From NCBI GenBank assembly GCA_001780285.1, contig MFGN01000005.1:74200-138199 (forward strand): DNA of 64,000 bases, written 5' to 3'. The notes beneath the pieces are model-generated. The model saw nothing but the letters and a program-made list of their open reading frames with translations, did not search any database and was not told the origin of the DNA. This DNA is from Candidatus Falkowbacteria bacterium RIFOXYD12_FULL_34_57. GTDB lineage: Bacteria > Patescibacteriota > Patescibacteriia > Patescibacteriales > UBA12075. The position numbers and the translations under genes are program-made. The number at the start of each line of letters is the position of its first letter. The first letter of the stretch is position 1. Shown here one piece after another: positions 2,921 to 60,432 of the stretch.

Positions 2921-3679
2921 ATGGAAAGTAGAAATAAAATAGTTAAATTTTGTGAAGACTATTTAAAGGTAAAAGATTTTACTGATTATTGTCATAACGG
3001 ACTTCAAGTAGAGGGATCGGAAGAGATTAATAAAATTATTACCGGAGTAAGTTTTTCGCGGAAATTAATAGAAAAAGCGAATCCGCCAACCGGCGGAAAA
3101 AAAGCGCAAATGATAATCGTGCATCATGGTATTTTTGGTAATCAAATTCCTAGCCCTTTGCAACTTAAAGGGATTGTTAAAAATAGAATCAAGTTAATTT
3201 TAGAAAATGATATTAATTTATGCGGGTTTCATCTGCCTTTGGATGCGCATCCGATAATCGGGAATAATATTTTACTTTGTAAATTATTAGGAGTTAAAAA
3301 AGTAAAGCCTTTTGATGTTGGTTTTATAGGAGAACTTGACAGGCAGGTTGATTTTAAAAAATTTGTCGATTTGGTAAATAAAAAATTAGGTGTTCAGTCT
3401 TTTGTTTTGGAAAACGGAAAAAAACAAATCAAAAAAGCAGCTATTATTTCCGGAGGGTCATCGCCTGATTTTGAGAAAGCAGCTCGATTGGGGGCGGATG
3501 TCTATATTTGCGGAGATATAAGAGAAGAGGTTGTAAGAGGCACGGAAGAAGCAGGTATAAATCTAATAAACGCCGGCCATTATAATACTGAGAAGTTAGG
3601 TATTCAGAATTTGGGAAAATTAATCGCGAAAAAGTTTAAGGTGAAGGTGGAATTTGTGGATATACCATGTGAGGTATAA
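2921..3679 (+). CDS. Nif3-like dinuclear metal center protein (YbgI/YqfO, DUF34 family)
   Basis: IIVHHGIFG, GFHLPLDAHP and NAGHYNTEK ligand motifs typical of the NIF3 family. Confidence 0.8.
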   Translation: MESRNKIVKFCEDYLKVKDFTDYCHNGLQVEGSEEINKIITGVSFSRKLIEKANPPTGGKKAQMIIVHHGIFGNQIPSPLQLKGIVKNRIKLILENDINLCGFHLPLDAHPIIGNNILLCKLLGVKKVKPFDVGFIGELDRQVDFKKFVDLVNKKLGVQSFVLENGKKQIKKAAIISGGSSPDFEKAARLGADVYICGDIREEVVRGTEEAGINLINAGHYNTEKLGIQNLGKLIAKKFKVKVEFVDIPCEV

Positions 3680-3718
3680 TTAATTATCAATTAAAAATTA
3701 CGAATTACGAAATTAAAT

Positions 3719-3892
3719 CTCCCTTAAAAAGGGGAGTACCCCGAAGGGGGGAGGGATGTAAAAGACGTGAATATCAGAAAAAACGTTAAATATTTTAGGT
3801 CACGTGCAACATCCCCCGAGTTCAGGCTAACTTGCGCTTTGTGCAACCTGCCTAAACATTCCCCCTTTACTAAGAGGGAATTATTATTTTTT
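3719..3892. other. GC-rich multi-hairpin element between nif3 and pheT (candidate cis-leader or small RNA; strand unresolved)
   Basis: Five hairpins: 3719-3736, 3739-3749, 3753-3815 (GGGATGT/ACATCCC plus ACGTGA/TCACGT), 3823-3850, 3858-3881. Terminator-like on the + strand (ATTCCC...GGGAAT then TTATTATTTTTT, 3856-3892) and on the - strand (GGGGTACTCCCC then TTTTT, 3724-3746). Confidence 0.4.
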
Positions 3893-12200: not shown

Positions 12201-14444
12201 TTATTTTTCATTTTTATGCCCGCATTCTTTATTGGAGCATTTGGAGCCGTTTTTTGTTTCTATCATTAGTGATTTGCATTCCGGGCATTTTTCTCCGGTT
12301 GGTTTGGAGTAAAAAGCGTTTTTGCAGTCAGGATAAGCATCACAAGCATAAAATGTGCCGCGTTTGCTTCTTTTTTGCACTATTTCTCCCTTGCCGCATT
12401 TAGGACACTTTATTCCGGTTGAGTTATTATTCTCTTCAATACTTTTAATGTTCTTGCATTTGGGATAGGCGGTGCAAGCCAGAAACGGGCCGAATTTTCC
12501 GTTCTTTACAATCATTTTTTCCCCGCATTTGTCACAGGTTTCGGTGCCGTATTTTTGTCTTAAATTTTCTAATTCTTCATTTTTTTCCCTGTCTACTTCG
12601 CCGTTGGCGTTAAGATTTTTAACATTTTTACATTCAGGATAATTAGAACAGGCTAAAAATTTGCCGTAGCGTCCGATTTTTATAATCATGGGATATTTGC
12701 ACTTTTCGCAAATTTCCTTTGTTTTTTCTTCAGGCATAATATCTTTTTTATTAACTTCTTTATCTTTTTTTATAAGATTTTTATGGAAAGGTTCATAAAA
12801 ACTTTTGATAACTTCCTGCCATTTGTGTTTTCCCTCAGCAATACTATCCAGTCTTTCCTCCATGTCGGCGGTAAATTGGTAATTCACAATATCTTGAAAA
12901 TGATTTTTTAAAAGGTTGGTTACGGTGAAAGCAATTTCGGTCGGCATGAGCTTTTTTTGCTCGTCTCGAACCACATAGTTTCGAGCTTCAATGGTTGCAA
13001 TGGTCGGCGCATAAGTAGAAGGGCGCCCAATTCCGTATTGTTCTAAAACTTTTACTAATCCGGCATCTGAATATCTTCCGGGTGGTTTTGTGAAATGCTG
13101 GTCTTTGGTTATTTCATGTAATTCTAGCACCTCATCTTTTTTAACTATCGGCAGTTCCACTTCTTTTGATTTTTCCGGGTAGATTTTCAAGTATCCGTCA
13201 AATTTTAATATTTGTCCGTTAGCGCGGAAAGAGAAGTCGGTGTTCCGAGCTTCTATATCAATAATCGTATTATCCAGATTAGCTTCGGGCATTTGACTGG
13301 CAAGAGACCTTTGCCAAATAAGAGTATAAAGCCTTAATTGATTTTTGTCGAGTTTTTTTATGGTATCCGGATTTTGGGCGACATCTGTGGGTCTAATTGC
13401 TTCATGCGCCTCCTGTGCTCCCTTGGATTTAGTTTTAAAGATACGCGGTTTAATTAAAGCATATTCCTCTCCCAGAGAGTTGTGCAGGTATTTTTTTGCG
13501 TCTGTTAAAAATTTATCAGAAAGAGATACGGAGTCGGTGCGCATGTAGGTGATATGCCCCTTTTCGTATAATTTTTGCGCCACTATCATGGTCTGCTTGG
13601 CCGAGAAACCCAGCCAGCGATTAGCGGTTTGCTGTAGCGTGGAAGTTGTAAAGGGCCGGGGAGGGTTTTTTTTGGTTTGTTTAATGTTAACATCGCTTAT
13701 GACATATTCGGCTTTTTCAAGTTTGGCCGTAATTTTTTCAGCTGATTCCCGGTCTTTGATGGCAAATTTATCCAATGTCTCTCCCTTGATTTTATTTAGC
13801 CGAGCTTTGATTGTTTTAGTAGCTGCTTTTTCGCTGACTCCCGCTTCGTCAAGCTTGCTTAGGGATGCTTCAATAGACCAGTATTCTTCCGGCTTAAAAG
13901 CCCTGATTTCTTCTTCTCTTTCAATTACAAGCCTTAGAGCTACACTTTGTACGCGTCCGGCTGATAGGCCGAAAGTAACCTTTTTCCATAAGAAAGGTGA
14001 TAATTCAAAACCAACAAGCCTGTCGAGTACGCGTCTGGCTTGTTGAGCATTTACCATCTCCATGTCTACTTTTCGTGGATTTTCAAGTGCTTCCAGAATG
14101 GCATTTTTGGTAATTTCATGAAAAACAATTCTTTTTGTTTTGCTCGGGTCAATTTTTAGAGCCTCAGTCAGATGCCAGGCAATAGCTTCTCCTTCACGGT
14201 CTTCGTCGGGAGCAAGTATGATTTCGTCAGCCTTTTTAACTAAAGCGCGAAGTTTTGCCACATTTTTTTCACATTTTTCAGGAATTATATATTTAGGTTT
14301 GAAATTGTTTTCAATATCAATTCCTTTATTTTTCTTTTCCAAATCCCTTATATGACCAAAAGAGGATTCTATTTGGTATCCGGAACCAAGAAATTTTGTA
14401 ATAGTTTTTGCCTTAGTGGGGGACTCAACGATAATTAATTTCAT
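12201..14444 (-). CDS. topA: DNA topoisomerase I with multiple C-terminal C4 zinc ribbons
   Basis: Start placed at MKLIIVESPTKAKTI (Toprim). Active-site region ITYMRTDS. Four CxxC...CxxC ribbons at the C-terminus. The tracked start at 14519 adds 25 non-conserved aa. Confidence 0.95.
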   Translation of the reverse strand: MKLIIVESPTKAKTITKFLGSGYQIESSFGHIRDLEKKNKGIDIENNFKPKYIIPEKCEKNVAKLRALVKKADEIILAPDEDREGEAIAWHLTEALKIDPSKTKRIVFHEITKNAILEALENPRKVDMEMVNAQQARRVLDRLVGFELSPFLWKKVTFGLSAGRVQSVALRLVIEREEEIRAFKPEEYWSIEASLSKLDEAGVSEKAATKTIKARLNKIKGETLDKFAIKDRESAEKITAKLEKAEYVISDVNIKQTKKNPPRPFTTSTLQQTANRWLGFSAKQTMIVAQKLYEKGHITYMRTDSVSLSDKFLTDAKKYLHNSLGEEYALIKPRIFKTKSKGAQEAHEAIRPTDVAQNPDTIKKLDKNQLRLYTLIWQRSLASQMPEANLDNTIIDIEARNTDFSFRANGQILKFDGYLKIYPEKSKEVELPIVKKDEVLELHEITKDQHFTKPPGRYSDAGLVKVLEQYGIGRPSTYAPTIATIEARNYVVRDEQKKLMPTEIAFTVTNLLKNHFQDIVNYQFTADMEERLDSIAEGKHKWQEVIKSFYEPFHKNLIKKDKEVNKKDIMPEEKTKEICEKCKYPMIIKIGRYGKFLACSNYPECKNVKNLNANGEVDREKNEELENLRQKYGTETCDKCGEKMIVKNGKFGPFLACTAYPKCKNIKSIEENNNSTGIKCPKCGKGEIVQKRSKRGTFYACDAYPDCKNAFYSKPTGEKCPECKSLMIETKNGSKCSNKECGHKNEK

Positions 14445-14522
14445 ATAAGATAAATTTTTAATTCTTAAAGCATTGTTTTTATTTATAGCTGATTTATAAA
14501 AAAAATGCAAATTTTGCAATTT

Positions 14523-15635
14523 TTAACTAATTTTAATATATTTCATTCCCCCTATATTTTTTATCATCCCCTTCATTTCCATAATTGTAAGGCAGGAGCT
14601 TATGGTTTGTGGCTTTTCTTTTAATTTACGGATTATTTCATCAATATGTACCGGTTCGTGTGATAAATTTTCCATGATTTTTTTCTCTTCCTTTGTTTCC
14701 GGTAATATTTTTTTACTTTCGTTTTGCATATTAATTTGTTCCAAGTTTAAACTTTCCAGTATTTCTTCGGTGCTGGTAGTTATTTTTGCTCCTTGCTTAA
14801 TTAAATTATTTGGTCCCGCAGAGGCACTGGAAAAAATATTTCCCGGAATAGCAAAAACATCGCGGTTTTGTTCAAGGGCAAAGTCGGCAGTAATTAAAGC
14901 GCCGGATTTAGCGCCGGCTTCTATCACCAGCGTCCCCAAAGAAAGCCCGGAAATTATTCGGTTTCTTTGGGGGAAGTTATATTTCAGGGGGAGCGTATCC
15001 AGGGGAAATTCAGAAATCAACAAGCCTCCGTTTGCCGTTATTTTTTCGGCTAAATATTTGTTTTGAGAAGGGTAGATGCTGCCGGCATTAATCCCTGTGC
15101 CAAGCACCGCAATAGTTCGACCATTGTTATTCAGGCATGCGAGGTGCGCGCAAGTATCCACGCCCAGAGCTAAGCCGCTAACAATGGTTAGATCATTTTG
15201 GACAAGCTCTCTGGTTATTTTTTCGGTAACGAGTTTGCCGTATGCGGTGATTTTCCTTGTTCCCACAATAGCAATACAATTAGTATGGCAAATATTGAAA
15301 TCACCTTTATAATATAAAACTTCAGGATGAATAATTGTTTCTTTCAAAAGAGCGGGAAAATTTTTATCATCACTGGAAATAAAATCAATATTTTCTTTTT
15401 GTAGAATTTCTAGAATCTTATCCGGATTGATTTCATTTCTTTTTAATACAAATTCTTTTGCTATTTTTTCGGGAATACCGATTGATTCTAATTTCTGCTC
15501 CGAGGCATAAAAAGCATCCTTTATATCTTTAAATGATGCTTTAATTTTTCTTATGCTCCTTGGTCCAAATTTGGAAAAATGAGAAATAGCTATTAAATAT
15601 TTATGTTTTTTTAAATTGTTTTGGCTTGTTGACAT
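14523..15635 (-). CDS. dprA: DNA processing protein DprA (Smf)
   Basis: GTRKITAYG, SGLALGVDTCAH, GGLLISEFP, FPQRNRIISGLS motifs. The dprA-topA adjacency is a common conserved arrangement. Confidence 0.9.
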   Translation of the reverse strand: MSTSQNNLKKHKYLIAISHFSKFGPRSIRKIKASFKDIKDAFYASEQKLESIGIPEKIAKEFVLKRNEINPDKILEILQKENIDFISSDDKNFPALLKETIIHPEVLYYKGDFNICHTNCIAIVGTRKITAYGKLVTEKITRELVQNDLTIVSGLALGVDTCAHLACLNNNGRTIAVLGTGINAGSIYPSQNKYLAEKITANGGLLISEFPLDTLPLKYNFPQRNRIISGLSLGTLVIEAGAKSGALITADFALEQNRDVFAIPGNIFSSASAGPNNLIKQGAKITTSTEEILESLNLEQINMQNESKKILPETKEEKKIMENLSHEPVHIDEIIRKLKEKPQTISSCLTIMEMKGMIKNIGGMKYIKIS

Positions 15636-15668
15636 TTTTTTTGCGTTATGTTAAGGTGGGTTAACATT

Positions 15669-15775
15669 AGCTTGCAAATTTCTGCTTGTTTAAGGGCGTT
15701 TACTTGTGGGTACCTCCTCCTCCTTGGTATTTACCAGCAAATTGTCCCTTTCGAGCAAGCAGAAATCTGCAAGCT
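15669..15775 (-). promoter_or_regulatory. Structured 5' leader of dprA-topA: 20-bp closing stem around a 67-nt interior containing GGAGGAGGAGG
   Basis: Arms 15669-15688 / 15756-15775 are complementary except at one position, which is A:C in + sense but G:U in - sense. Lies just downstream of a - strand TTGATA-17-TATTAT promoter and upstream of the dprA ATG. Confidence 0.5.
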
Positions 15776-15791
15776 AAAAGCATTTAAATTT

Positions 15792-15820
15792 ATAATAACA
15801 AAAATATTTACATTTATCAA
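15792..15820 (-). promoter_or_regulatory. Candidate sigma70-type promoter for dprA-topA
   Basis: On the - strand: TTGATA (15820-15815), 17-nt spacer, TATTAT (15797-15792). Confidence 0.5.
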
Positions 15821-15835
15821 AGTGTTTAATATCTA
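15807..15835 (+). promoter_or_regulatory. Candidate promoter for the + strand small RNA
   Basis: TTTACA (15807-15812), 17-nt spacer, TATCTA (15830-15835). Back-to-back and overlapping with the - strand promoter. Confidence 0.4.
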
Positions 15836-15842
15836 AACATTT

Positions 15843-15972
15843 GCCTAGAAGTTGTCAGCGTAAAATCTCCCCTCCTTTGATTTTGCGCTTCAAGGTATAT
15901 CCTTAACTTTTAGGCAGATGTGTGGAATATTAAAAGTATTAAAAAATCGAGTAATTGTTTACTCGATTTTTA
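15843..15972 (+). ncRNA. Candidate ~130-nt sRNA with a C-rich anti-SD-like loop and intrinsic terminator
   Basis: Outer stem 15843-15853 / 15905-15915, inner stem 15857-15867 / 15879-15889, side hairpin AAGG-tatat-CCTT. Both non-WC pairs are G:U in + sense. 11-nt loop UCCCCUCCUUU. Terminator hairpin 15946-15967 plus U-run. No + strand CDS downstream. Confidence 0.45.
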
Positions 15973-15975
15973 TTT
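15941..15975. terminator. Bidirectional intrinsic terminator
   Basis: AAAAAA-ATCGAGTA-attgtt-TACTCGAT-TTTTATTT. Serves the - strand gene 15977-16447 and the + strand sRNA candidate. Confidence 0.75.
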
Positions 15976-15976
15976 G

Positions 15977-16447
15977 TTATTTTACAAGTTTTCCGTCTTC
16001 AAAACTGAATATGAAATTTTGTTTTTTTTTAAAACTTCTAAAAAAAATAATCTCTTCCGAAGTTAAGCCTAGATATTCCAATAATTCTTCTTGAAATTTA
16101 AACATTTTTCTGAGACAAGCTTCGCAGTGTCTTATTTTTTCCTTATGTATGGGGGTTTGGCAATTTTCACATCGGCCTTCTTTGAATTTTCGGAAAGGTA
16201 ATTTTTGATTTATATCTTTTGAAAAACTATTTTTTAGAAATAATTTCCATGTTAAAAATGAATTTTTAATCCAATCGTATTCATTTTTTGTTTTTACTTT
16301 TGCAGATTCGGATATTAGCAAATCTATAAATTCAGTTATTCTTTGTTTTATTTCTTTGTATTCTTCATTTTGAGAAACATTTCCATGAATATGTATTTTT
16401 TCTGCTATTAAATCTGCATTTTGATTTTTTAAATCTCTGATTGCCAT
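15977..16447 (-). CDS. Hypothetical protein with CxxC...CxxC zinc-ribbon
   Basis: 156 aa; CENCQTPIHKEKIRHCEAC. No family recognised; a terminator follows. Confidence 0.45.
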   Translation of the reverse strand: MAIRDLKNQNADLIAEKIHIHGNVSQNEEYKEIKQRITEFIDLLISESAKVKTKNEYDWIKNSFLTWKLFLKNSFSKDINQKLPFRKFKEGRCENCQTPIHKEKIRHCEACLRKMFKFQEELLEYLGLTSEEIIFFRSFKKKQNFIFSFEDGKLVK

Positions 16448-16512
16448 TATTCTCTCCTTTTTTGTTAACGAACTTTTAGATTATTAGAATATATCAACAA
16501 ATAAACAAGAAG

Positions 16513-17070
16513 TCAATTTAGTATTGTGTTATTTTCCAATATTTCATTTATCATTTTTTTTATTATTACCATTTCTTCTTTGGAGAATTTTTGCAGGACA
16601 TATTTTTCTGTCGGCATTTGATTGGGCTTGTTGCCTTTAATTCCAATTCTTAAACGGACAAAATTTTTAGTTTTGAGGTGGTTAATTATGGATCTTACGC
16701 CATTATGTCCCGCCGCGCCCCTGTCGATTGCTTTCTTATATTTTCCAAAATTTATATCCAGATCGTCGTGTAGTATTATTAGGGTATCAGAAAGATTGCT
16801 ATTTTTTTGTTTAAGGATTCCCAGTTTTTTTGGAAGTAAGTTGTAATAAGATAATGCGGCTTGCACTGATTGTCCTGAGTTGTTCATAAAAGTTTGCGGT
16901 TTTACAAGAAGACCATCCGATGTTTCGCAAATTTCAGCTTCAAACTTCTTATTTTCTTGCCATTGCGCATGGTGTTTTTCAGCTAAAGCATCAATAAGCA
17001 TAAATCCGGCGTTATGTCTGGTATTTTTATATTGTTCTCCTGGATTTCCCAGGCCAACTATTATTTTCAT
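16513..17070 (-). CDS. pth: Peptidyl-tRNA hydrolase
   Basis: MKIIVGLGNPGEQYKNTRHNAGF and GAAGHNGVRSI motifs. Confidence 0.95.
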   Translation of the reverse strand: MKIIVGLGNPGEQYKNTRHNAGFMLIDALAEKHHAQWQENKKFEAEICETSDGLLVKPQTFMNNSGQSVQAALSYYNLLPKKLGILKQKNSNLSDTLIILHDDLDINFGKYKKAIDRGAAGHNGVRSIINHLKTKNFVRLRIGIKGNKPNQMPTEKYVLQKFSKEEMVIIKKMINEILENNTILN

Positions 17071-25350: not shown

Positions 25351-27987
25351 ATGAGTAAAAAATATCAAAATTTATTTAATAATCAGATAATCAAAATATC
25401 TCTTTGTTTCATTTTGATTATTATTTTTTTATTTGGAGTAAGTGATTTTGTTTTTGCGCAAACAGGTGCCAATAATTTACTTTGGGGCGGACAAGCCGGA
25501 AATATTCAGTCTGGTACGGGTCTCGGGAGTACTGATATTCGAATTGTTATTGCCAGAGTAATTCAAATCTTTTTGGGATTTTTGGGAATTATAGCGATAG
25601 TATTAATTGTGTATGCCGGTTGGCTCTGGATGAGTAGTGCGGGAGATTCAAGTAAGATCGATAAGGCTAAAAAAACATTAATTGCCGCCATTATCGGTTT
25701 TATTATTATTTTGGCTTCATTTGGAATTGTAAGCTTTCTTCTAAAGGTATTAAATGACGGAACAGGCGGTCTGGGCGGAGGATCAAGACAGAATTTGCCG
25801 ATTAGGGGAACGGGTGCAATTGGTAATTGTGTTGTGGAGACAGTCTATCCCGTGCCAAACCAGCAGGATGTTCCAAGAAATGTAAATATTATTGTTACAT
25901 TTAAAGAAGAAATAGATCCAACTTCTATTCGTGATGGCGCCGGAAATGTTCTACCTGGAAGTGTGCAAATATTTAAAAGAGGAACAAATCCTATGATTCC
26001 GGCCAATTTAATTACCGATATTCAGGTTTCTGTTACTCCTGATAATAAAACTTTTGTTTTTGACCCGACAAATTATCTTGGTTCACCGTCGGAATATGTT
26101 TGGTATACGGTTTTACTTACAAATAATATAGATAAAGCTGATGGTGATTCGGCTTTTGATGATTGTTTTGATAAATTTTATGAATGGGATTTTGAGGTAA
26201 ACAACAGATTGGACTTGGTGCCGCCGCAAGTTAGAAATGTCATTCCGGCTCCGGATAATTCAGTAGACATAAGCGCGATTATTCCGGCTAGTCCGGCAAT
26301 TGGAACTATCACCGTAACCGGTGTGCCGGATGAATACGCGGCAGCTTCGCATGTTGGCGTGAATTGGGTTGGGGCATTGCCTGCAAAGCCTGCTACTGTA
26401 ACCATGAATCCTCATTGTACGGAGAGCGGCGTATTAACCGTTTCGGTTTCGGCAGATGCCAGCTCAGCTCAGCTCAGCAGGGGAGGAGTGAGTTTGGGAT
26501 CCGCATCTATAAATGGCGCTTCTGTTATTTTTAATAATTTTTTAACATTAACCTTAAGCAACTATCCGGCAGACTATTTTGAAGCCGGCAACAGTTGGAA
26601 TATTACCGGAGTTACAGCCGAGGTGCAGGCTGATTATTTGATAGTAGGAAATAAGAGATATGTCTTTGGGGTGGATATAGCCTCAAATCCCGTGTTTTCC
26701 GTGGTTGCGCAAAATATTGCTAATGCCCTGATTTCAAATACCCAGATAGATGTTTTTCCTGCGTTTGTGCCTGGAAATAATTTCATTAGCTTAATGGCTA
26801 AGGTTGCGGGAATTACTGGAAACAGTATTGAATTGTCTACAAATGATAGTGCTATATTTAATTTTATCCTCATGAATGGGGGAGTTGATTTGGTGGAAAA
26901 TATAACAATAAACAGCAGGGAGGACGAGCCGAGAAATGTGGTAATTCAAATTAATTTTAACGAAGCGATTAACCCCATGAATGTTTCTGGAGACGCTGTT
27001 AGTTTACAAAATTATTTAAAGGTAAAATGTATAGGTGGACTAAACTGTAATGCGGGAAATCCAAATCTTTTTGCTTGTGGGGCGGATTTATGTGTTCAGG
27101 GCGAGTTTGTAATTTCAAATGTTTATAGAACGGTTGAATTTGTTTCAAATAATGAATGTGCAGTAAATGCTTGCGGGGACACGATTTATTGTTTGCCGGC
27201 AGATAGTAATATAGAAGTGGATATAAATGCCGCAACTCTTGATGGATGCGTTAATTGTAATACTAAATCACCATATACCGCTTGCATAGCCGATGCTTTG
27301 GCAGTAAATCATTGCCATGACTCTTCTTTGGGAATTATGTATCCTTTAGCTTCATTTGCCGGAGGGCTTCCTGATGGAGTTGTGGATGCGGCTGGAAACT
27401 CTTTAGATGGAGATAGAAGCTCCGATGCTGAAGGACCAATGGAATTTTATAATGAAAATAGTATAGCGCCCCCAGGTCCTGTGCCATTGCCTGGCGCTGG
27501 AGACAGTTTCCGATGGTCATTTTTTATAAATAGCAAGATAAACCTAACTCCGCCGGAAATAAAAGATATTGATGCAAATCATGAACATTTAGATAATAAT
27601 GTTTCTCTTTCTGATCCGGTGTTGATAGATTTTGATATTCCGATAATGTCTAATACTTTAAGTACCGGAGAAACAAACTCCAATGGAACGAAACACAAGA
27701 AAGTTAATTTATGGAGTGCAACCGGTATAGGGGCTGGGTATTGGGTGTCTAATATTGGATTTGATGATAGTCCTCCAGATGGAAAAGAAGATTGGACGCG
27801 CGTCCAGATTAATCATTCTGATTTTGCCCAGTCCACTACTTATCGCACACAAATCGGATCAGGAATAAAATCTATTTATCAAAATTGTTTCAAGCCTAGT
27901 TGGAGTAATACTTGCTCTGGAATCCCGACAGAGGTTTCATGTTGTGGGGAAGTGCCAACAGCAGCAGAGAGTTGTCCTGGGTTTTAA
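25351..27987 (+). CDS. Large surface protein: signal peptide plus VirB2/T4SS-pilin-like two-helix N-terminal module, Big_5/SbsA-type Ig-like domains, Cys-rich C-terminal region
   Basis: N-terminal 135 aa is paralogous to that of the next gene (LLWGGQAGNIQSGTGLG...GWLWMSSAGDSSKIDKAKKTLIAAIIGFIIILASFGI). VYPVPNQQDVPRNVNIIVTFKEEIDPTSI and EPRNVVIQINFNEAINPMNV are Big_5-like. Confidence 0.75.
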   Translation: MSKKYQNLFNNQIIKISLCFILIIIFLFGVSDFVFAQTGANNLLWGGQAGNIQSGTGLGSTDIRIVIARVIQIFLGFLGIIAIVLIVYAGWLWMSSAGDSSKIDKAKKTLIAAIIGFIIILASFGIVSFLLKVLNDGTGGLGGGSRQNLPIRGTGAIGNCVVETVYPVPNQQDVPRNVNIIVTFKEEIDPTSIRDGAGNVLPGSVQIFKRGTNPMIPANLITDIQVSVTPDNKTFVFDPTNYLGSPSEYVWYTVLLTNNIDKADGDSAFDDCFDKFYEWDFEVNNRLDLVPPQVRNVIPAPDNSVDISAIIPASPAIGTITVTGVPDEYAAASHVGVNWVGALPAKPATVTMNPHCTESGVLTVSVSADASSAQLSRGGVSLGSASINGASVIFNNFLTLTLSNYPADYFEAGNSWNITGVTAEVQADYLIVGNKRYVFGVDIASNPVFSVVAQNIANALISNTQIDVFPAFVPGNNFISLMAKVAGITGNSIELSTNDSAIFNFILMNGGVDLVENITINSREDEPRNVVIQINFNEAINPMNVSGDAVSLQNYLKVKCIGGLNCNAGNPNLFACGADLCVQGEFVISNVYRTVEFVSNNECAVNACGDTIYCLPADSNIEVDINAATLDGCVNCNTKSPYTACIADALAVNHCHDSSLGIMYPLASFAGGLPDGVVDAAGNSLDGDRSSDAEGPMEFYNENSIAPPGPVPLPGAGDSFRWSFFINSKINLTPPEIKDIDANHEHLDNNVSLSDPVLIDFDIPIMSNTLSTGETNSNGTKHKKVNLWSATGIGAGYWVSNIGFDDSPPDGKEDWTRVQINHSDFAQSTTYRTQIGSGIKSIYQNCFKPSWSNTCSGIPTEVSCCGEVPTAAESCPGF

Positions 27988-28013
27988 TAATTTTTTAACA
28001 TGAATTATGAATT

Positions 28014-31000
28014 ATGATTTTTAGTTTAAAAAAATATATATTCATAGTATTTTTTATAGCATCATTTTTTGTGGTAGTTGATTTTACTTTGGCTGGTGAT
28101 GCTAATACTTTGCTTTGGGGAAATCAAGCTGGAAATATTCAGGCTAACACCGGTTTGGGTACAACAGACCCCAGAATAATTATTTCTCAAATTATCAATA
28201 TTATTCTTGGTTTTTTAGGAATTGTGGCTGTAGTGATTATTTTGTATGGCGGATGGCTTTGGATGACCAGCCAGGGAGATGCAAATCAGATAGAAAAGGC
28301 AAAAAAGATTTTAATTTCGGCGATTATCGGCCTGGTTATTATTATGTCCGCATTTGGTATAGCTCAATTTGTGTTAAATAGATTATATGACGCTACCGCT
28401 GGTTGTACTCCTGGTGATTTTAAGAATTGTGGATGCGGTGGAATGGGTACTCAAACCTGTAATGCAGGTGGCACTTGGGATGCTTGTTTCGGTGGTGATT
28501 GTATAGTTGGGGAAAGTTGTTGTTTTGGCGGTTTTTGTGCTGCAGATTGCGCCGCTCCGCCCAGCTTTGTAATTACCAATACTTCTCCGGCAGACGGAAG
28601 CATAAATTTGCCCAGAAATGCTAAAATTAGATTTAGAACCAATTTACCAATTAATGCCGGTACGGTTGGTTTGGGGGTGGGGGGAACTTTTCATGTGGTA
28701 GACGGCGGAGGTGTTGATATACCAGGAAACATTACCCCAATTACCGGCAGAATTATAGAATATACTCCAAGCGGCGCTTGTCCTGCTAATATTTGCGGAG
28801 CCACAGAGTGTTTGCCCGGAGGTGAAATTATAACTGTTACAGCCGATAACGGCATACTTAGCGTGGGCGGCAATAATTTAACTTGCAACATATTAAATCC
28901 TTGCGTGATAACTTTTACCACCAGTAATGTGGTAGATTGTGATAACCCTAATATTAGCCTTGATTTTGATCAAATTTGTTCTATCCCCAACAATGAAATT
29001 TATGCTAATTCTTCCGATGATTCCGGAGTATGGCAGATAGAATATTTTGTGAACAATGTGCCGATTGTAAACAATCCCCCCATAAGCGGTCCCAATCCGA
29101 TTATTAATCCATTTCCAGCTCCGGGAGCTTTTAATACCAGGGCTTTGTTTATGCCCAGTGTTTTTGATGGTACTGTTTTTGTTCCAGGGGATACACTTAG
29201 TCTGAGGGCAACCGTCTACGATGTAGATGCTCATAGTTCATCTGATACTAAAAATACAATTTTAAGGCCGGCGCATTGTTGTAGCGGCATTCTGGACGGG
29301 GATGAAGAAGGAGTAGATTGCGGAGGAAGTTGTGCTCGCTGTAACGGGGCTGCTTGCGGTGCAAGCCTTAATGATGCTTGTGTTGCTGGTGACTGTAGCG
29401 CCAATAATAATCTTTGTGCTTCGCAATTTTGTAATTGTACTACGCCGGCAGCTCCTGGTTGCCAGACAGCCGGATATGCTGCTGGTATCAATGATTGTTG
29501 CTTGTGTCAACAAGCACCGATTATTGATTGGATTACTCCGATTGGCGGTTTTTGTGATGGTGTGGGCGGAGAAAATATCTCTTGTACCGAGGATAATGAA
29601 ACAATAAATTGCGCCGCTTTCGGGGGAATTTGTAATACAGATATAGCTAACGGAGCTTCGGGTAATTTAATAACTATAGGAGGAAGGTGGTTTGGGAGCG
29701 TGCCGGGCATAGTGCAAATCGGGGGAGTAAATGCAGATTTAGCCTCAGTAGTAAATCCAGCTTGTGTAAATAGTTGGACTGATAATCAAATTATAGTAGA
29801 GGTGCCGGCCGGTCTGCCACTTGGAGCGCAAATTGTTTTAGTGAGAAATTCTGCTTTACTAGAAGATGCTAATAATGATGCTCGGGGACCAAGCGTTGAT
29901 TTTAATATTAACACTATTGTTCGTCCCGGACTTTGTTTAATAAATCCTGATAACGGACAAATAGGGGATGTGATTCAATATAATGGAGTGAGACTTAATA
30001 ATAATTCAGCTTTTTTTGGAAATATAAATACAAATGTGCCAGCGACTGCAAATATATTTGCAGCTAATTTATTAGGTCAGGCTAATGTGCCGAATATTAC
30101 GAACGGACATACAACAACTTTTACCGTGAGCCCTGGTCCGGATGTTGTTAGCAGTAATTATTTAAGATTTCGTAAAACAGCAGAGCCTGAGGCGGGTCCT
30201 AGGATTATATCATTTGAGCCCGTGCAGGGAAATGAAGGTCAATATGTAACTATTTTCGGAGAAGGTTTTGGTGGTAGCCGCGGAACAAGCAATGTGCGTT
30301 TTGATTTAGTGGACGCTGATTTTAATTTTCCCGATGTTTGCAGTGATAATTTATGGAGTGATACTCAAATTATCGTAAAAGTTCCAGCACTCGCAAATGG
30401 TCCTTATACTATTTTTATTGATTTAGATTCGGGGCCAACAATAGATACAACTCTTTTAAGTCCTAATGTATTTACTTTTAATAATGCACTTCCTTTATTG
30501 CCTAGTTTGTGTAAAATTGAGCCAAAAATTGGTCCTAATAATAGTTCTGTGAGCCTGTTTGGGGAATATTTTGATGCTTATAATGCGAATAGTAAGGCAA
30601 GGTTTCATTTAAATAGAGATCAGACGGGTCCCGCAATACCTGCGCCAATAGGACCAATACAAAAATGGCAATTAAATGGCGATCATTATGAGGTGGAAGT
30701 ATTGGTGCATCAGTTGGCTGTAAGCGGACCGGTAAGAATCGTAAAGGATTTTCCAGAACAGGTTGGAAACGGACTTAATTTTAGAGTGGGTTCCTGTAAT
30801 AAGGAGACTAATCCTAATGAAGCTTGTGGAGCTGGTAATGTTTGTTGCCCCACAGGAAGTTATAATGAAGGACAATGTGTAGTTAATTCTGATGATTGTA
30901 ATCTGGGTTTTGAAACTTCTGTTTATGAATGGGATTTTAGTACCAATATTACCGGAGGACAAATCGGAGATCCTTGCGATGATGACTTGGTTATGCCCGC

Positions 31001-34000
31001 CTGTCAGGCTTCTTCCACGATGTGCGCTTTGCCGCTTGAATGTAATACTACAACATGTACTTGCCAGCCCGCACCAGGAGAATCATGTTCCGGGGTGGGG
31101 CTCTCTGAATGTAATTTGGTAACATTTTGTCCGAATTCTCCGGGGCAGTGCTCGACTTATCCCGGGGGGCAGCCAGAGCAAATCGGTTCTTGTATTTTTA
31201 GCTGCGAGGGAGTGGGGGGGTGTACTGCCGCTATTTGTGATTATAACAATGTTTTAGATAGATGCGTGCTTACAGGGTTAAGTTGTGATATGACTCAGCC
31301 GGCAGTAGATGCTCTATTAAATCCAATTACTTCGTATTGTGCAGATTACGGAGGGGTCGGCAGATGGCACATAAATACTCCAATGAGCTGCCCCTTAGGC
31401 TGGACCCAAATATTTGGCGGAAGGTGTGTTAATCTTGCTGCGAATTGTGATATCTGTAATGCCGGATTTGTTTGTTCCGGCGGCCTATGTGCGGTAGACC
31501 GAGATATTTGTCCGGCAAGCAGTATTTGTAATAACACTGATGAATGTGTTGCAAGCGATGTTGCTGCATGTGAGTGCTGTTGTGAGATTGGTCAGGATGC
31601 CCGTGATTGTTGTTCTCCTTTAACCTGCGAAGGGACATGCGGTGATGATTTAGTTGATGATGGCGCTGGATTTGGCGAGTGCTCCGGATGTGCTAATGCC
31701 GGAGTGACACAAGCTGATCATGACAATGCTTGTAATTGTTCGGGGCATATCGGCAAATTTTGCGAAACAACTGATCCTGCTTTTCCAAATGGGGTTTGCC
31801 GTGACTGTACCCGTCTTTCAAATGAGCCGGAATGTGATTTGCATAATACTTGCTGCACGGACGCTATGCAAGGAGGCGCTTGTCGCGGAGGAGATGGTGC
31901 TGTGGCAGGACTTTTGGGAGACTGCGCTTATTACAATTGTGTTCAACCGAATAATGATGTTTGTAATGTGAATCCTGTTAATTCCGGGGATTTTAGAGAT
32001 TTAGGAACTTGTAACACCAAGTGCGTTCCCGGTCCCGCTGGCCTCGGGCTTAGCTGTGCTTCTACTTCCACTGACCCCTTCATTTCTAATGTTTGTAATA
32101 CCATAATATGCAATCCTCCATTTGAATGCTTAAATGCTTCCGGCGCCGGAGCTACACCACCGGATGATTGCGGTTTTTGTTGTTGTGATCCAACGGTTGG
32201 TAATGTGTGCGGACCACTACTTACCTGTGACCCAGATAATGCGCCATGTTCTGGCGCTGGACGCGGGCTTTGTTGTGGTTGTGATGCAGATATAGATTGT
32301 AATAATGTGGCGATGATGGGTTGTGGCCGAGATGCTTGTTGCAGACAAAGACCAAGCGTAGTTCCGAATTCCGAAGTACCCGCAGATGAACCGCCCGGAC
32401 TTCCGGGAATGGGTAGGATATGTCGCAATGCTTTAATTTCAGCTACATTCGACCAATTAATGGATACTGCCAGTTTTTCCGGAAATATGATAGTAATAGG
32501 AGACTATGGAGGAAATACATGTCCGGCCGGCACAGAATACTTAATTACCAAAAAAGAAGAAAAATATAATAATATATTTGAATTTATAGTTTTAAAAATT
32601 AAAAAATTAGCTAGCTTTCTGCCTGGTAAGTTTGCAAATGCTTACACAATTCCAAATGCTTTAAATCACTATTGCGCAGTTGCCGGCACAGTAAGCTCTG
32701 AGGTAAATGGTCTTGGTAACAGTGTTATAAAGTTTGCTCCTAAAAACGCCCTAGACGCAGATAGACTATATTATGTGATTATAAAAGGAGATGAGTCTTT
32801 GGATAGTAGCAAGGGGGTTTTAAATAATTGGGGAATAGGCATGAATGGCCCCTTTAACGCTAATAATGTATTTAATAGTATAGTTTATAACAATGCCCAT
32901 ATTTGGTCATTTAGAACCCTACCAGAGACAGCAACCAATGATGGAATCTGTCTACTGGGAGAAGTAGAGCTTAATCCATATTCTTATTTATTTAAAACCA
33001 CTAAAAATAATCCACAAGAAAATGATATTAATAAAAATGATTCTACTTTTGATACCTTAGCCGATCAAGACAAGGTTTTTGTGGCCACTACAAAAAGTTT
33101 ATCAGGTCAAATAATTGTTCCTATTGCAGGTGTTTATGACTGGGCTTGGACATGGACAGTGACTGATCCGACTGTAGCTAATTTTGCCGCCATAAATCCA
33201 TTTACACCAGTAATAGAAGATTATAAAAGATTAATTGTAGCAGATGCGGGGGAGACGGATGGATATACTGAATTGACCACTAGGGCCACCATTACTTTTG
33301 GTCTTCCTGGTTCTCCGATAGGCACTTTTTTTAGTGACACATCCGATATATATGTTTTTGTGTGCGCAAATCCTTGGCCGCCTATTGTTTTAGGAACTTG
33401 GCAGCCGTGGCGCGACGCGAATTATTCAGCGCCAGCTAGTTGTGTTGCCGGATCAGGAGCTTGTCATAATACTAATTATGAATTTTATTATTGCCGTGAC
33501 AAAGGAGGAGAGGGAACATATGATGACTTACCATCTATTGCAAGTGGGGCCGTTATTAGAGGCGATAATAACCCTGAAATATTAAAAGAAGCTTATTTCT
33601 TACGAAATCCAGCACCAGTGGCAACTACCACACTTACCATTGTAGACCCTCAAACCGGAGGAGTGCTTGATGTTTCATGGGCGCCAGCTGTCGCTGGAGC
33701 AAACGGATATAAATTGTATTGGGGGAGTGCAAGCGGTATTTACAGTGAATACGCCGATGTGGGCAATGTGAATAATTATTCTATTTCCGGACTTACTAAT
33801 AATACAGTTTATTATATTAATATTACAGCATATTTTAATACTGGCGCAGAGAGCGCTTATCACGGAGAAATATTCGGAATTCCAACAGATCAAACCGCTC
33901 CGCTTCCTCCAATAGGGCTTACGGCTGTAGCTGGAGATGAAAGTATAGAATTATCATGGAATTTAGATGTGGTAGGGGATGTAGTGAGTTATAATATTTA

Positions 34001-34172
34001 CTACGGAGTTTCATCTGGTAATTACGGAGGATCAGTAAATGAAGGTTTAATTAATTCTGTTTCCATAGAAGGACTCACAACCGGTGAAGATTATTTTTTT
34101 GTAGTCACCGCTTTAGATGAATATGATAATGAAAGTGTTTATTCACTTGAAGTAAGCGGAATACCTAATTAG
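28014..34172 (+). CDS. Giant (2052 aa) surface protein: pilin-like N-terminal anchor, Big_5-like, IPT/TIG repeats, very Cys-rich central region, two C-terminal Fn3 domains
   Basis: N-terminus LLWGNQAGNIQANTGLG...GWLWMTSQGDANQIEKAKKILISAIIGLVIIMSAFGI. CSGILDGDEEGVDCGGSCARC motif. IPT-like PRIISFEPVQGNEGQYVTIFGEGFG. Fn3 LDVSWAPAVAGANGYKLYWG / IELSWNLDVVGDVVSYNIYYG. Confidence 0.8.
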   Translation: MIFSLKKYIFIVFFIASFFVVVDFTLAGDANTLLWGNQAGNIQANTGLGTTDPRIIISQIINIILGFLGIVAVVIILYGGWLWMTSQGDANQIEKAKKILISAIIGLVIIMSAFGIAQFVLNRLYDATAGCTPGDFKNCGCGGMGTQTCNAGGTWDACFGGDCIVGESCCFGGFCAADCAAPPSFVITNTSPADGSINLPRNAKIRFRTNLPINAGTVGLGVGGTFHVVDGGGVDIPGNITPITGRIIEYTPSGACPANICGATECLPGGEIITVTADNGILSVGGNNLTCNILNPCVITFTTSNVVDCDNPNISLDFDQICSIPNNEIYANSSDDSGVWQIEYFVNNVPIVNNPPISGPNPIINPFPAPGAFNTRALFMPSVFDGTVFVPGDTLSLRATVYDVDAHSSSDTKNTILRPAHCCSGILDGDEEGVDCGGSCARCNGAACGASLNDACVAGDCSANNNLCASQFCNCTTPAAPGCQTAGYAAGINDCCLCQQAPIIDWITPIGGFCDGVGGENISCTEDNETINCAAFGGICNTDIANGASGNLITIGGRWFGSVPGIVQIGGVNADLASVVNPACVNSWTDNQIIVEVPAGLPLGAQIVLVRNSALLEDANNDARGPSVDFNINTIVRPGLCLINPDNGQIGDVIQYNGVRLNNNSAFFGNINTNVPATANIFAANLLGQANVPNITNGHTTTFTVSPGPDVVSSNYLRFRKTAEPEAGPRIISFEPVQGNEGQYVTIFGEGFGGSRGTSNVRFDLVDADFNFPDVCSDNLWSDTQIIVKVPALANGPYTIFIDLDSGPTIDTTLLSPNVFTFNNALPLLPSLCKIEPKIGPNNSSVSLFGEYFDAYNANSKARFHLNRDQTGPAIPAPIGPIQKWQLNGDHYEVEVLVHQLAVSGPVRIVKDFPEQVGNGLNFRVGSCNKETNPNEACGAGNVCCPTGSYNEGQCVVNSDDCNLGFETSVYEWDFSTNITGGQIGDPCDDDLVMPACQASSTMCALPLECNTTTCTCQPAPGESCSGVGLSECNLVTFCPNSPGQCSTYPGGQPEQIGSCIFSCEGVGGCTAAICDYNNVLDRCVLTGLSCDMTQPAVDALLNPITSYCADYGGVGRWHINTPMSCPLGWTQIFGGRCVNLAANCDICNAGFVCSGGLCAVDRDICPASSICNNTDECVASDVAACECCCEIGQDARDCCSPLTCEGTCGDDLVDDGAGFGECSGCANAGVTQADHDNACNCSGHIGKFCETTDPAFPNGVCRDCTRLSNEPECDLHNTCCTDAMQGGACRGGDGAVAGLLGDCAYYNCVQPNNDVCNVNPVNSGDFRDLGTCNTKCVPGPAGLGLSCASTSTDPFISNVCNTIICNPPFECLNASGAGATPPDDCGFCCCDPTVGNVCGPLLTCDPDNAPCSGAGRGLCCGCDADIDCNNVAMMGCGRDACCRQRPSVVPNSEVPADEPPGLPGMGRICRNALISATFDQLMDTASFSGNMIVIGDYGGNTCPAGTEYLITKKEEKYNNIFEFIVLKIKKLASFLPGKFANAYTIPNALNHYCAVAGTVSSEVNGLGNSVIKFAPKNALDADRLYYVIIKGDESLDSSKGVLNNWGIGMNGPFNANNVFNSIVYNNAHIWSFRTLPETATNDGICLLGEVELNPYSYLFKTTKNNPQENDINKNDSTFDTLADQDKVFVATTKSLSGQIIVPIAGVYDWAWTWTVTDPTVANFAAINPFTPVIEDYKRLIVADAGETDGYTELTTRATITFGLPGSPIGTFFSDTSDIYVFVCANPWPPIVLGTWQPWRDANYSAPASCVAGSGACHNTNYEFYYCRDKGGEGTYDDLPSIASGAVIRGDNNPEILKEAYFLRNPAPVATTTLTIVDPQTGGVLDVSWAPAVAGANGYKLYWGSASGIYSEYADVGNVNNYSISGLTNNTVYYINITAYFNTGAESAYHGEIFGIPTDQTAPLPPIGLTAVAGDESIELSWNLDVVGDVVSYNIYYGVSSGNYGGSVNEGLINSVSIEGLTTGEDYFFVVTALDEYDNESVYSLEVSGIPN

Positions 34173-34186
34173 TATTTTACATATTA

Positions 34187-34277
34187 GCATTTAAACATTT
34201 AAACATGTTAAGGTAATTTTATAGTGAAATATATATACCTTTATCTTGTCATATTTAAATGTTTAAATGTTTAAATG
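34187..34277. repeat. Inverted repeat of tandem CATTTAAA words; right arm ends on the start codon of the next gene
   Basis: Left arm gcatttaaacatttaaacatg (34187-34207). Right arm catatttaaatgtttaaatgtttaaATG (34250-34277). 19 nt of perfect complementarity. Confidence 0.6.
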
Positions 34278-59595: not shown

Positions 59596-60432
59596 ATGCA
59601 AAAATTACATAAAATATTAATAATTTTTGGAATAGTCCTTATTTTAAGCGGAGTTTTTTACTTTGCTTTTAATAGAGCATTGGCAGATTCAAGCAGTCTG
59701 GAGGTAAGTTTTTTAAATGTGGGGCAGGGAGATGCTATATTGATTGAGACGCCTGAAGGGCAGAATATTTTGATTGACGGAGGACCGGATAAGAAAGTGA
59801 TAGATTGCTTATCAGAAGAGTTTCCTTTTTGGGATCGGACTATTGACCTGATGATTTTGACCCACCCCCACGATGATCATGTCAGGGGACTAATAGATGT
59901 TTTACAAAGATATAATGTGAAGAAAGTTTTATATACTGGAGCAGAGGACGGGGCCGCTGCATATAATGCCTGGAAGAATTTAATCAAAGAGCTGGCAATA
60001 CCCCTGGTAATTATCGACAGACCGCAGATTGTTAACCTGGGAAAGAATTGTTTTTTAGATATTTTGTATCCGCGGACAAGCTTTTTGGGCAAAGAAGAAA
60101 AAAATTTGAATAATACTTCCATAGTCTCTAAGCTAGACTGCCGGGGTAGAAAATTTTTGTTTACGGGAGACGCGGAGGCAGAAGTGGAGAGAGAACTATT
60201 GGAAGAAAAAACGGACTTAAGAGCGGATATTTTAAAAATCGGCCACCATGGATCGAATAATGCCAGTAGTGAATATTTTTTGCAGATCATAAGTCCAAAG
60301 GAAGCCGTGATTCAGGTTGGCGCTGAAAATGATTTCGGCCATCCGACACTGAGGATACTTAGAAGGCTTGAGAAAATGAATATTAGTATTTTTCGGAATG
60401 ATAAAGATGGGACAGTACGATTTGTTTATTAA
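59596..60432 (+). CDS. Stand-alone ComEC-type metallo-beta-lactamase-fold hydrolase with N-terminal membrane anchor
   Basis: VSFLNVGQGDAILIE, ILTHPHDDHVRGL and KIGHHGSNNASS, as in the C-terminal domain of full-length ComEC. Confidence 0.85.
   Translation: MQKLHKILIIFGIVLILSGVFYFAFNRALADSSSLEVSFLNVGQGDAILIETPEGQNILIDGGPDKKVIDCLSEEFPFWDRTIDLMILTHPHDDHVRGLIDVLQRYNVKKVLYTGAEDGAAAYNAWKNLIKELAIPLVIIDRPQIVNLGKNCFLDILYPRTSFLGKEEKNLNNTSIVSKLDCRGRKFLFTGDAEAEVERELLEEKTDLRADILKIGHHGSNNASSEYFLQIISPKEAVIQVGAENDFGHPTLRILRRLEKMNISIFRNDKDGTVRFVY

Follow-up and report, generated by a model that had tools for sequence, protein, structure and literature searches.

The spacer of 341 nucleotides (nt; 15636-15976) between dprA and the 3' end of an open reading frame (ORF) of 156 amino acids (aa) in Candidatus Falkowbacteria bacterium RIFOXYD12_FULL_34_57 raises the question of what it encodes, and on which strand. 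The stretch analysed, referred to here as the window, comprises 64,000 nt (contig MFGN01000005.1 of assembly GCA_001780285.1, positions 74,200 to 138,199). In a preliminary description, a long hairpin in the spacer had been taken for the minus-strand 5' leader of a dprA-topA transcript, carrying a Shine-Dalgarno (SD) mimic, and a second element for a plus-strand small RNA (sRNA) with a loop complementary to this leader, the regulatory link being offered as speculation. Our analysis indicates, with high confidence, that both elements, named D1 and D2, are conserved structured sRNA genes of the plus strand. In the loci examined, which span a clade of Patescibacteria, the two always have a single syntenic location. 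The positions of the two elements are:

15669-15775, plus strand: D1, a rod-like hairpin RNA of 107 nt that comprises a 20-base-pair (bp) basal helix and a conserved inner helix and internal loop (CUGCUUGUUUAAGGG / UCCCUUUCGAGCAAGCAG).
15826-15932, plus strand: D2, a three-way-junction (3WJ) RNA with helices P1 (15827-15853 / 15905-15932), P2 (15857-15867 / 15879-15889) and P3 (15892-15895 / 15901-15904).

The inverted repeat at the base of D1 (15669-15688 / 15756-15775) was present as first described. It spans 20 bp with one mismatch; two such matches were found in 0 of 100 shuffles, and the minus-strand fold of the region had a z of -5.9 relative to dinucleotide shuffles. The pair that had been used to orient the hairpin is indeed G:U in the minus sense; however, the hairpin as a whole favours the plus strand, where it folds with 43 pairs (six G:U) at -49.9 kcal/mol, compared with 37 pairs (two G:U) at -45.0 kcal/mol on the minus strand. 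The description of D2 as a terminator-ended plus-strand 3WJ sRNA with an anti-SD-like, C-rich loop of 11 nt (UCCCCUCCUUU, 15868-15878, closing P2) held, with a z of -9.35 for the plus-strand fold relative to dinucleotide shuffles and strong comparative data. Its extent needed correction, the closing helix P1 being longer than had been claimed. No plus-strand coding sequence (CDS) follows 3' of D2 in the window, also in agreement with the earlier account.

Searches with nhmmer and blastn using the spacer matched the region upstream of dprA in several relatives, and D1 and D2 were then recognised there by reading. D2 is present in 27 distinct loci of related Patescibacteria and D1 in 16 (individual loci of relatives carry L numbers below), between pth and dprA in the loci examined. 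Where both occur, D1 lies 5' of D2 on the same strand, and the gene order der-pth-D2-D1-dprA-topA, with both RNAs directed towards pth, is kept across relatives. A pattern scan of metagenome contigs for D2, performed free of context, placed 17 of 17 matches in the der-pth-RNA-dprA-topA neighbourhood; D1 was found just 5' of D2 and on the same strand in 11 of these 17 loci, as it is in the window, L007, L008 and L017. Many relatives carry D2 without D1 (L003-L005, L010, L011, L014 and others). Covariance-model searches of three viral contigs that matched the pattern found nothing, and those pattern matches are chance.

Covariance models were built for D1 (R1) and for D2 (R2 and the improved R3). 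With R1 the window's D1 scored 117.7 bits on the plus strand and 44.5 bits on the minus strand, the former value not being independent, as this D1 is one of the six sequences from which R1 was built. On the plus strand the window's D2 scored 55.9 bits with R2, from whose building it had been left out, and 68.4 bits with R3, whose alignment includes it, so that the second score is not independent. The members detected with R3 come from loci in which DprA is about 50% or more identical to that of the window, plus L020 at 46%; R3 found no D2 in loci more distant than that. The window copies have the properties of the family, namely a long covarying closing helix, a CCUCCU apical loop and placement in the pth-dprA interval in divergent orientation to dprA.

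The comparative check suggested in the preliminary description, covariation in related genomes, gave clear support to both structures. MAFFT misaligned the inner hairpins of D2; a model was built from four sequences of equal length, and all sequences were realigned to it. Among the resulting 24 distinct D2 sequences, 93% of cells were paired and 38 of the 45 pairs showed compensatory changes, counts that lean towards the model to which the alignment was fitted. The corresponding values for the 16 D1 sequences were 90% and 29 of 42. Pairing values as high as those observed were reached by 0 of 500 shuffles for D2 and likewise for D1 (0/500), and when the partners were slid by 1-3 columns, the cells paired fell to 36-54% (D2) and 33-48% (D1). 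A plain MAFFT alignment of 12 D2 sequences, analysed with RNAalifold, gave a closing helix of 26 bp with compensatory changes at 17 of the 26 P1 pairs and many G:U pairs in the plus sense. Cross-matches were seen between the two elements: the D2 models match D1 at 34.6-38.6 bits, the D1 model matches D2 at 27.8 bits, and the helix strand CUUCUARGCA is common to both. Judged from their sequences and models, D1 and D2 are paralogues.

Long inverted repeats in an intergenic place could also represent a non-functional repeat, such as a miniature inverted-repeat transposable element (MITE) or another palindromic element, or terminator or insulator hairpins. Against this, the window contains one copy each of D1 and D2, the synteny is strict, with all 17 context-free matches lying between pth and dprA and none confirmed on a viral contig, and the compensatory changes are specific to one strand through G:U pairs and surround an invariant loop. 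Covariation and synteny together effectively refute this reading, which we regard as hardly credible.

The strand of the selected structure was read from the wobble pairs, A:C or C:A cells being those that would be G:U on the opposite strand. In the D2 alignment there were 196 G:U or U:G cells and 14 A:C or C:A cells, which bears out the plus-sense wobble orientation originally proposed for this RNA; in the D1 alignment the numbers were 67 and 27. The RNAalifold alignment energies on the plus and minus strands were -52.5 and -5.5 for D2, and -41.1 and -21.9 for D1, and the plus-strand fold was the more stable in 24 of 24 individual D2 sequences and 15 of 16 individual D1 sequences. In the plus orientation, conserved promoters are found upstream of the elements, and U-tracts or terminators downstream. 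Because of these G:U and A:C counts, the alignment fold energies and the conserved promoters and terminators, the selected structure of D1 and D2 is assigned to the plus strand of the window, on which both RNAs are read away from dprA, in the direction of the pth operon's end.

These data bear directly on the leader model, in which the hairpin serves as the minus-strand dprA-topA 5' leader with an SD mimic (AAGGAGGAGGAGG) and the 3WJ sRNA pairs with it. In 16 loci the hairpin is conserved as an RNA of the strand opposite to dprA, and the supposed GGAGG loop reads UCCUCCUCCUU (15715-15725) on the plus strand of D1, a CCUCC-type, anti-SD-like motif as in D2. It is true that the minus strand also folds into a long hairpin and that complementarity exists between the loop of D2 and the D1 loop read in antisense (-20.5 kcal/mol), as had been reported. 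The latter arises because D1 and D2 are paralogues sharing the same motif, and it is therefore no evidence of a regulatory pair. Since many relatives have D2 and lack D1, D2 cannot depend on a target antisense to D1. Only 33 nt separate D1 from the dprA ATG in the window, so a long dprA 5' untranslated region (UTR) would cross D1 in antisense; in relatives the distance is at least 100 nt, which leaves room for a separate dprA promoter.

The promoter evidence completes this comparison. The following elements were identified around D1 and D2:

15629-15657, plus strand: putative D1 promoter, with TTGACA at 15629-34, a 17-nt spacer and the extended -10 box TGT-TAAGGT at 15649-57; predicted start about 15664.
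15767-15796, plus strand: candidate proximal D2 promoter, with CTGCAA at 15767-72, an 18-nt spacer and TATAAT at 15791-96; predicted start about 15803.
15942-15971, both strands: bidirectional intrinsic terminator, with a 13-bp stem and T-runs on both strands, ending D2 (plus) and the 156-aa ORF (minus).
15820-15792, minus strand: promoter-like TTGATA-17-TATTAT, with 10/12 matches and TG-extended; status uncertain.
15677-15648, minus strand: putative alternative proximal dprA promoter, with TTGCAA at 15677-72, an 18-nt spacer and TAACAT at 15653-48, 12 nt before the ATG.

In the 95 nt scanned upstream of D1, 14 of the 16 loci have a promoter of the form TTGAC[AT]-17-TA(A/G)(T/G)(A/G)T (TGnTAAKRT), and in the remaining two it sits a little beyond that distance. 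Its direction is away from dprA in every case. The -10 variant of the window's D1 promoter, TGnTAAGGT, also occurs in L008, L017 and L044. A U-tract directly follows the D1 stem on the plus strand in 8 of the 16 loci. The window's D1 has none, so read-through from D1 into D2 is plausible there. The candidate D2 promoter is positionally homologous to a conserved element of the D1-D2 linker in relatives, ATAATAACATATTT, which forms TTGACA/TTGGCA/TTGCAA-16/17-TAACAT (TAGCAT in L050). Terminator hairpins are found 3' of D2 in relatives too; the terminator hairpin of the preliminary description is present, and being bidirectional it serves the 156-aa ORF as well as D2.

The two divergent promoters described earlier exist as sequences; nevertheless, their positions clash with the boundaries of the conserved RNAs. 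The plus-strand TTTACA (15807-12)-17-TATCTA (15830-35) fails the criteria of the promoter scan and has its -10 box inside the P1 helix. It would start transcription at about 15842 and remove the outer part of P1, which covaries in relatives. The minus-strand TTGATA-17-TATTAT is directed towards dprA, as a leader would need, and its TATTAT box is the same AT-rich stretch as the plus-strand TATAAT, read backwards. No counterpart to it was found when the D1-D2 linkers of relatives were read by eye, so a conserved promoter facing dprA was not borne out. Promoter-like sites were not enriched in the spacer region (2 found, 3.0 expected).

The absence of an SD before dprA had been noted correctly, and it proved to be the rule. 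An SD core lies upstream of only 9 of the 45 window ORFs of at least 120 aa (about 20%), in a survey in which the start codon was set crudely as the first ATG and which took in, for example, the ORFs at 59596, 37268, 38728, 35058 and 57576. In approximately seven of the 45 genes a TATAAT-like box ends 6-8 nt before the ATG, a signature of leaderless transcripts. Translation initiation in this genome thus seems, from these upstream regions, to be largely independent of SD sequences. Because only 9 of the 45 genes have an SD core, the missing SD of dprA is ordinary here and is no special property of this gene. From the alternative dprA promoter the transcript would be nearly leaderless, its 5' UTR measuring about 6 nt, and the site fits the -10 box pattern of those seven or so genes. 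That a start without an SD is normal here, and that this promoter is available, are further points against the leader model, which on the balance of the comparative data we consider very improbable. In this genome a longer dprA 5' UTR may run antisense through D1; the "dprA leader" itself is D1 read on the wrong strand. It is not supported and should not be propagated in annotation.

The arrangement at the dprA start could also point to a local role in cis that is specific to the window, in which transcription from the D1 promoter interferes with dprA, or D1 pairs with read-through dprA transcripts, and the RNA product itself is secondary. The -35 box of the D1 promoter (TTGACA, 15629-34) does overlap the dprA start codon (15633-35, CAT on the plus strand), and divergence from dprA is kept in every locus. 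Interference, however, would impose no selection on the 38 and 29 covarying pairs or on the invariant loop; furthermore, the spacing to dprA is highly variable among loci, D2 lying about 870-900 nt away in L009 and L020. A purely local function is accordingly improbable to a high degree, and the two conserved plus-strand sRNAs remain our preferred interpretation.

The question of what these RNAs do turns on their conserved sequences. The hexamer CCUCCU is near-invariant in the apical loops of D1 (16 homologues) and D2 (24-27 homologues), which are 8-13 nt long; it is identical to the anti-SD core of 16S ribosomal RNA (rRNA) and is the sole invariant single-stranded sequence of the two elements. 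The CCCTCCT loop of D2 was invariant in 12 of 12 sequences. In relatives the D1 loop reads YUUCCUCCUUG in the orientation of the window's plus strand, UCCUCCUU being almost invariant while the flanking stems covary. Certain helix sequences are also nearly invariant, namely UGCCUAGGAG / CUUCUAGGCA beside the junction of D2 and ACUUGCUUAAGGG / UCCCUUCUAAGCAAGUAG by the internal loop of D1, and the other stems covary. The closing helices measure about 20 bp in D1 and about 27 bp in D2.

By analogy with C-rich-loop sRNAs of Firmicutes, such as RsaE/RoxS, and with the RNAIII loops, the D1 and D2 loops would pair with purine-rich, AGGAGG-type SD sites and block binding of the 30S subunit, acting on the minority of SD-led genes in these genomes. 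The conserved helix sequences (UGCYUARG / CUUCUARGCA) would probably add a recognition site for a protein or RNase III; the nearly invariant helices by the junction and the 20-27-bp stems suggest a protein partner or processing by RNase III. A precedent is found in Staphylococcus aureus, where RsaE uses UCCC motifs that are left unpaired to bind SD regions and so prevents initiation complexes from forming, as RNAIII likewise does (PMC2790875). Among the start regions of the window, the best predicted duplexes fall on SD-led ones (-16.3 to -10 kcal/mol, the median over the full set of 45 being -3.3), the top duplex being with caGGGAGGAau before the gene at 8395 (-16.3 kcal/mol). This ranking is a matter of consistency and not proof. 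The SD-pairing mechanism is put forward tentatively, at slightly less than an even chance. As this step limits the explanation as a whole, tandem paralogous sRNAs that mask SD sequences, the whole is likewise judged to fall a little short of even.

Several points weigh against this explanation. The target prediction is not discriminating, as the 5th percentile for random 45-mers is already -12.5 kcal/mol, and a generic anti-SD seed of 6-7 nt confers no target specificity. The conserved helix sequences and the 27-bp closing stem are unusual for sRNAs that act by simple base pairing and point to a protein partner. Although D1 is clearly assigned to its strand, the evidence is less strong than for D2, with 27 A:C cells remaining. 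The searches covered 64 kb of the window genome and about 10 kb per relative. Finally, the transcripts, their ends and their abundance are inferred from the DNA.

The helices raise the possibility that D1 and D2 are decoys that mimic the 3' tail of 16S rRNA, their CCUCCU loops and helices binding a protein and not mRNAs. The normal targets of such a protein would be the 16S 3' end or single strands rich in C and U; conceivable examples are KH-domain factors, maturation factors and nucleases. Near-invariant helices like those of both RNAs typically mark protein-binding sites, the loop is invariant in its generic anti-SD core only, and the neighbours der and pth are translation-related, although this may be mere conserved gene order. 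Era has GAUCA as its main determinant on 16S rRNA; the D1 and D2 loops lack GAUCA, and an Era-binding mimic was dropped for this reason. The partner protein of a decoy remains hypothetical, and loop-presented C-rich motifs have been found experimentally to pair with mRNAs in other bacteria (PMC2790875). On this evidence a decoy is unlikely, though it is the chief competitor of the SD-pairing mechanism. A broader proposal, that D1 and D2 are Patescibacteria-specific global mimics of the 16S 3' tail, competing with the 30S subunit for SD-led mRNAs or titrating a factor that binds the 16S tail, also seems rather doubtful; if true, they would shift the cell between SD-dependent and SD-independent or leaderless translation where few genes use an SD.

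The genes that border the spacer are:

14523-15635, minus strand: dprA, 370 aa (Pfam DNA_processg_A, 1.3e-79, and DprA_WH), the divergent neighbour of the RNA genes, with topA next.
15977-16447, minus strand: the 156-aa ORF, convergent with D2 and downstream of pth and der.

The best relatives of the window's DprA, at 39-59% identity, belong to metagenome-assembled Patescibacteria labelled Falkowbacteria, Parcubacteria or Paceibacterota, and a protein identical to the window DprA is present on scaffolds from Rifle aquifer metagenomes. The 156-aa ORF (15977-16447, minus strand) has no Pfam match, is called as a gene in public assemblies and has a clear SD (aaaaaggagagaata ATG). As tblastn matched it in 0 of 17 metagenome loci (in L038, for example, D2 directly follows pth), it looks like a lineage-specific insertion. 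The start of topA (12201-14519, minus strand) is ambiguous: the ORF list gives a TTG at 14519 (772 aa), the first ATG is at 14444 (747 aa), and public gene calls give 769 and 747 aa. No tRNA or transfer-messenger RNA (tmRNA) was found by ARAGORN. The G+C content rises to 0.40-0.43 at 26000-34200, compared with about 0.30-0.35 elsewhere, coinciding with ORFs of 2052 aa (28014-34172) and 878 aa (25351-27987).

Other observations concern the relatives. In L001, L002, L003, L005 and L012, tandem repeats of 7-8 nt, recognised by eye, lie within the 30-80 nt adjoining the dprA start (GAATTAC x4 in L002, ATGAATT-like in L003 and L005, TAACGCR in L001); the window is without them. They might be a binding array for a regulator. 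L004 carries an insertion of approximately 170 nt (about 3600-3800) between the upstream promoter and D2 that is not present in its close relatives L003 and L005; it contains the G/C-rich palindromes CCCCCTTCAAAAGGGGG and CCCCTCCTTTAGAAGGAGGG and may be a small mobile palindromic element. In L011 (1996-2351, minus strand), D2 (2218-2351) is followed 4 nt later by two tRNA genes on the same strand, which suggests that they are co-transcribed and processed together. One of the tRNA matches (2102-2214) has the unusual length of 113 nt, suggestive of an insertion.

RNA-based regulation in the Candidate Phyla Radiation (CPR) is almost unexplored; these organisms are mostly uncultured, with tiny genomes and unusual ribosomes. 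D1 and D2 form a clearly delimited RNA family: covariation is strong, the genomic position is fixed, two loops display the exact anti-SD core, and both RNA genes are currently unannotated. Should the loops bind SD sequences, the family would regulate, in compact form, an SD-led regulon that can be defined. Two conserved paralogues in tandem, in a CPR lineage that makes sparse use of SD sequences, hold more interest than one sRNA would, their function being inferred.

To relate D1 and D2 to known RNAs, the whole window was searched with Rfam 15 at gathering thresholds, without a match to any model, those of RNase P and ribosomal-protein leaders included, and the spacer (15000-16600) and two relatives at E <= 10 gave chance-level matches only. 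Scores below threshold included 25 bits for L10_leader (gathering 44) and 28 bits for Spot_42 (80). The Bacteroides sRNA BTnc231 (RF04180) matched D2 with its terminator weakly in two divergent loci, scoring 16.3 and 21.3 bits where the gathering threshold is 80.4 (window 15820-15972 and L046 10143-10310); this similarity is probably one of shape only. D1 and D2 are undescribed in the literature searched, a search largely outside subscription journals, and the survey of Weinberg et al. 2017 (PMC5737381) makes no mention of Parcubacteria, candidate phyla, dprA or CCUCC. Several known classes were weighed and set aside: ribozymes, the hammerhead among them (conserved cores absent and no Rfam match), 6S RNA (no central bubble, and D1 and D2 are too short), signal recognition particle RNA (no GNRA-capped domain IV, and the wrong strand), retron non-coding RNA (no reverse transcriptase) and type I toxin-antitoxin systems (no conserved antisense ORF noticed, with no systematic check made).

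The orphan non-coding RNA motifs, such as raiA and the 224 motifs of Weinberg et al. 2017 (PMC5737381), are likewise defined by covariation, conserved loops and context; D1 and D2 differ in lying outside the Rfam 15 families and in having an obvious functional clue in the anti-SD loop. SD-sequestering leaders, RNA thermometers and riboswitch expression platforms likewise hold a CCUCC-type segment in a stable hairpin near a gene start. Those elements act in cis, on the strand of the gene that they regulate, whereas D1 and D2 lie opposite dprA and run up to a terminator, with no CDS after them.

The CiaR-dependent csRNAs of Streptococcus comprise several paralogues, some in tandem, with an unpaired sequence complementary to the SD and AUG; they are short, have two stem-loops with the anti-SD between the stems, and are defined by a CiaR promoter repeat. 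In contrast, D1 and D2 present the anti-SD in the apical loop, have sigma-70-type TTGACA-17-TGnTAAKAT promoters without the CiaR repeat, and have no Rfam match.

The likeness to RsaE/RoxS that had been proposed was found to apply to the motif and not to the family. RsaE/RoxS and the other UCCC-motif sRNAs of Staphylococcus and Bacillus, among them the RNAIII hairpin loops (Geissmann et al. 2009, PMC2790875), likewise present C-rich, SD-complementary motifs in unpaired hairpin loops. As in the RsaE/RoxS type, the motif is the most conserved part of D1 and D2, each RNA is encoded by a gene of its own, with promoter and terminator, and a locus holds more than one C-rich loop. However, no sequence or structural homology was found: the RsaE covariance model (RF01820) gave no window match at gathering and none at E <= 10 on 15000-16600 or L046 9900-10400. 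D1 and D2 also carry the full anti-SD core CCUCCU and not UCCC, and they are more structured, with closing helices of 20-27 bp, a three-way junction and conserved helix sequences. Their hosts are Patescibacteria, with about 20% SD-led genes in the window, and their function is proposed by analogy. Taken together, D1 and D2 would constitute a new RNA family, mechanistically closest, by this analogy, to the C-rich-loop sRNAs that target SD sequences (RsaE/RoxS, the RNAIII loops and the csRNAs).

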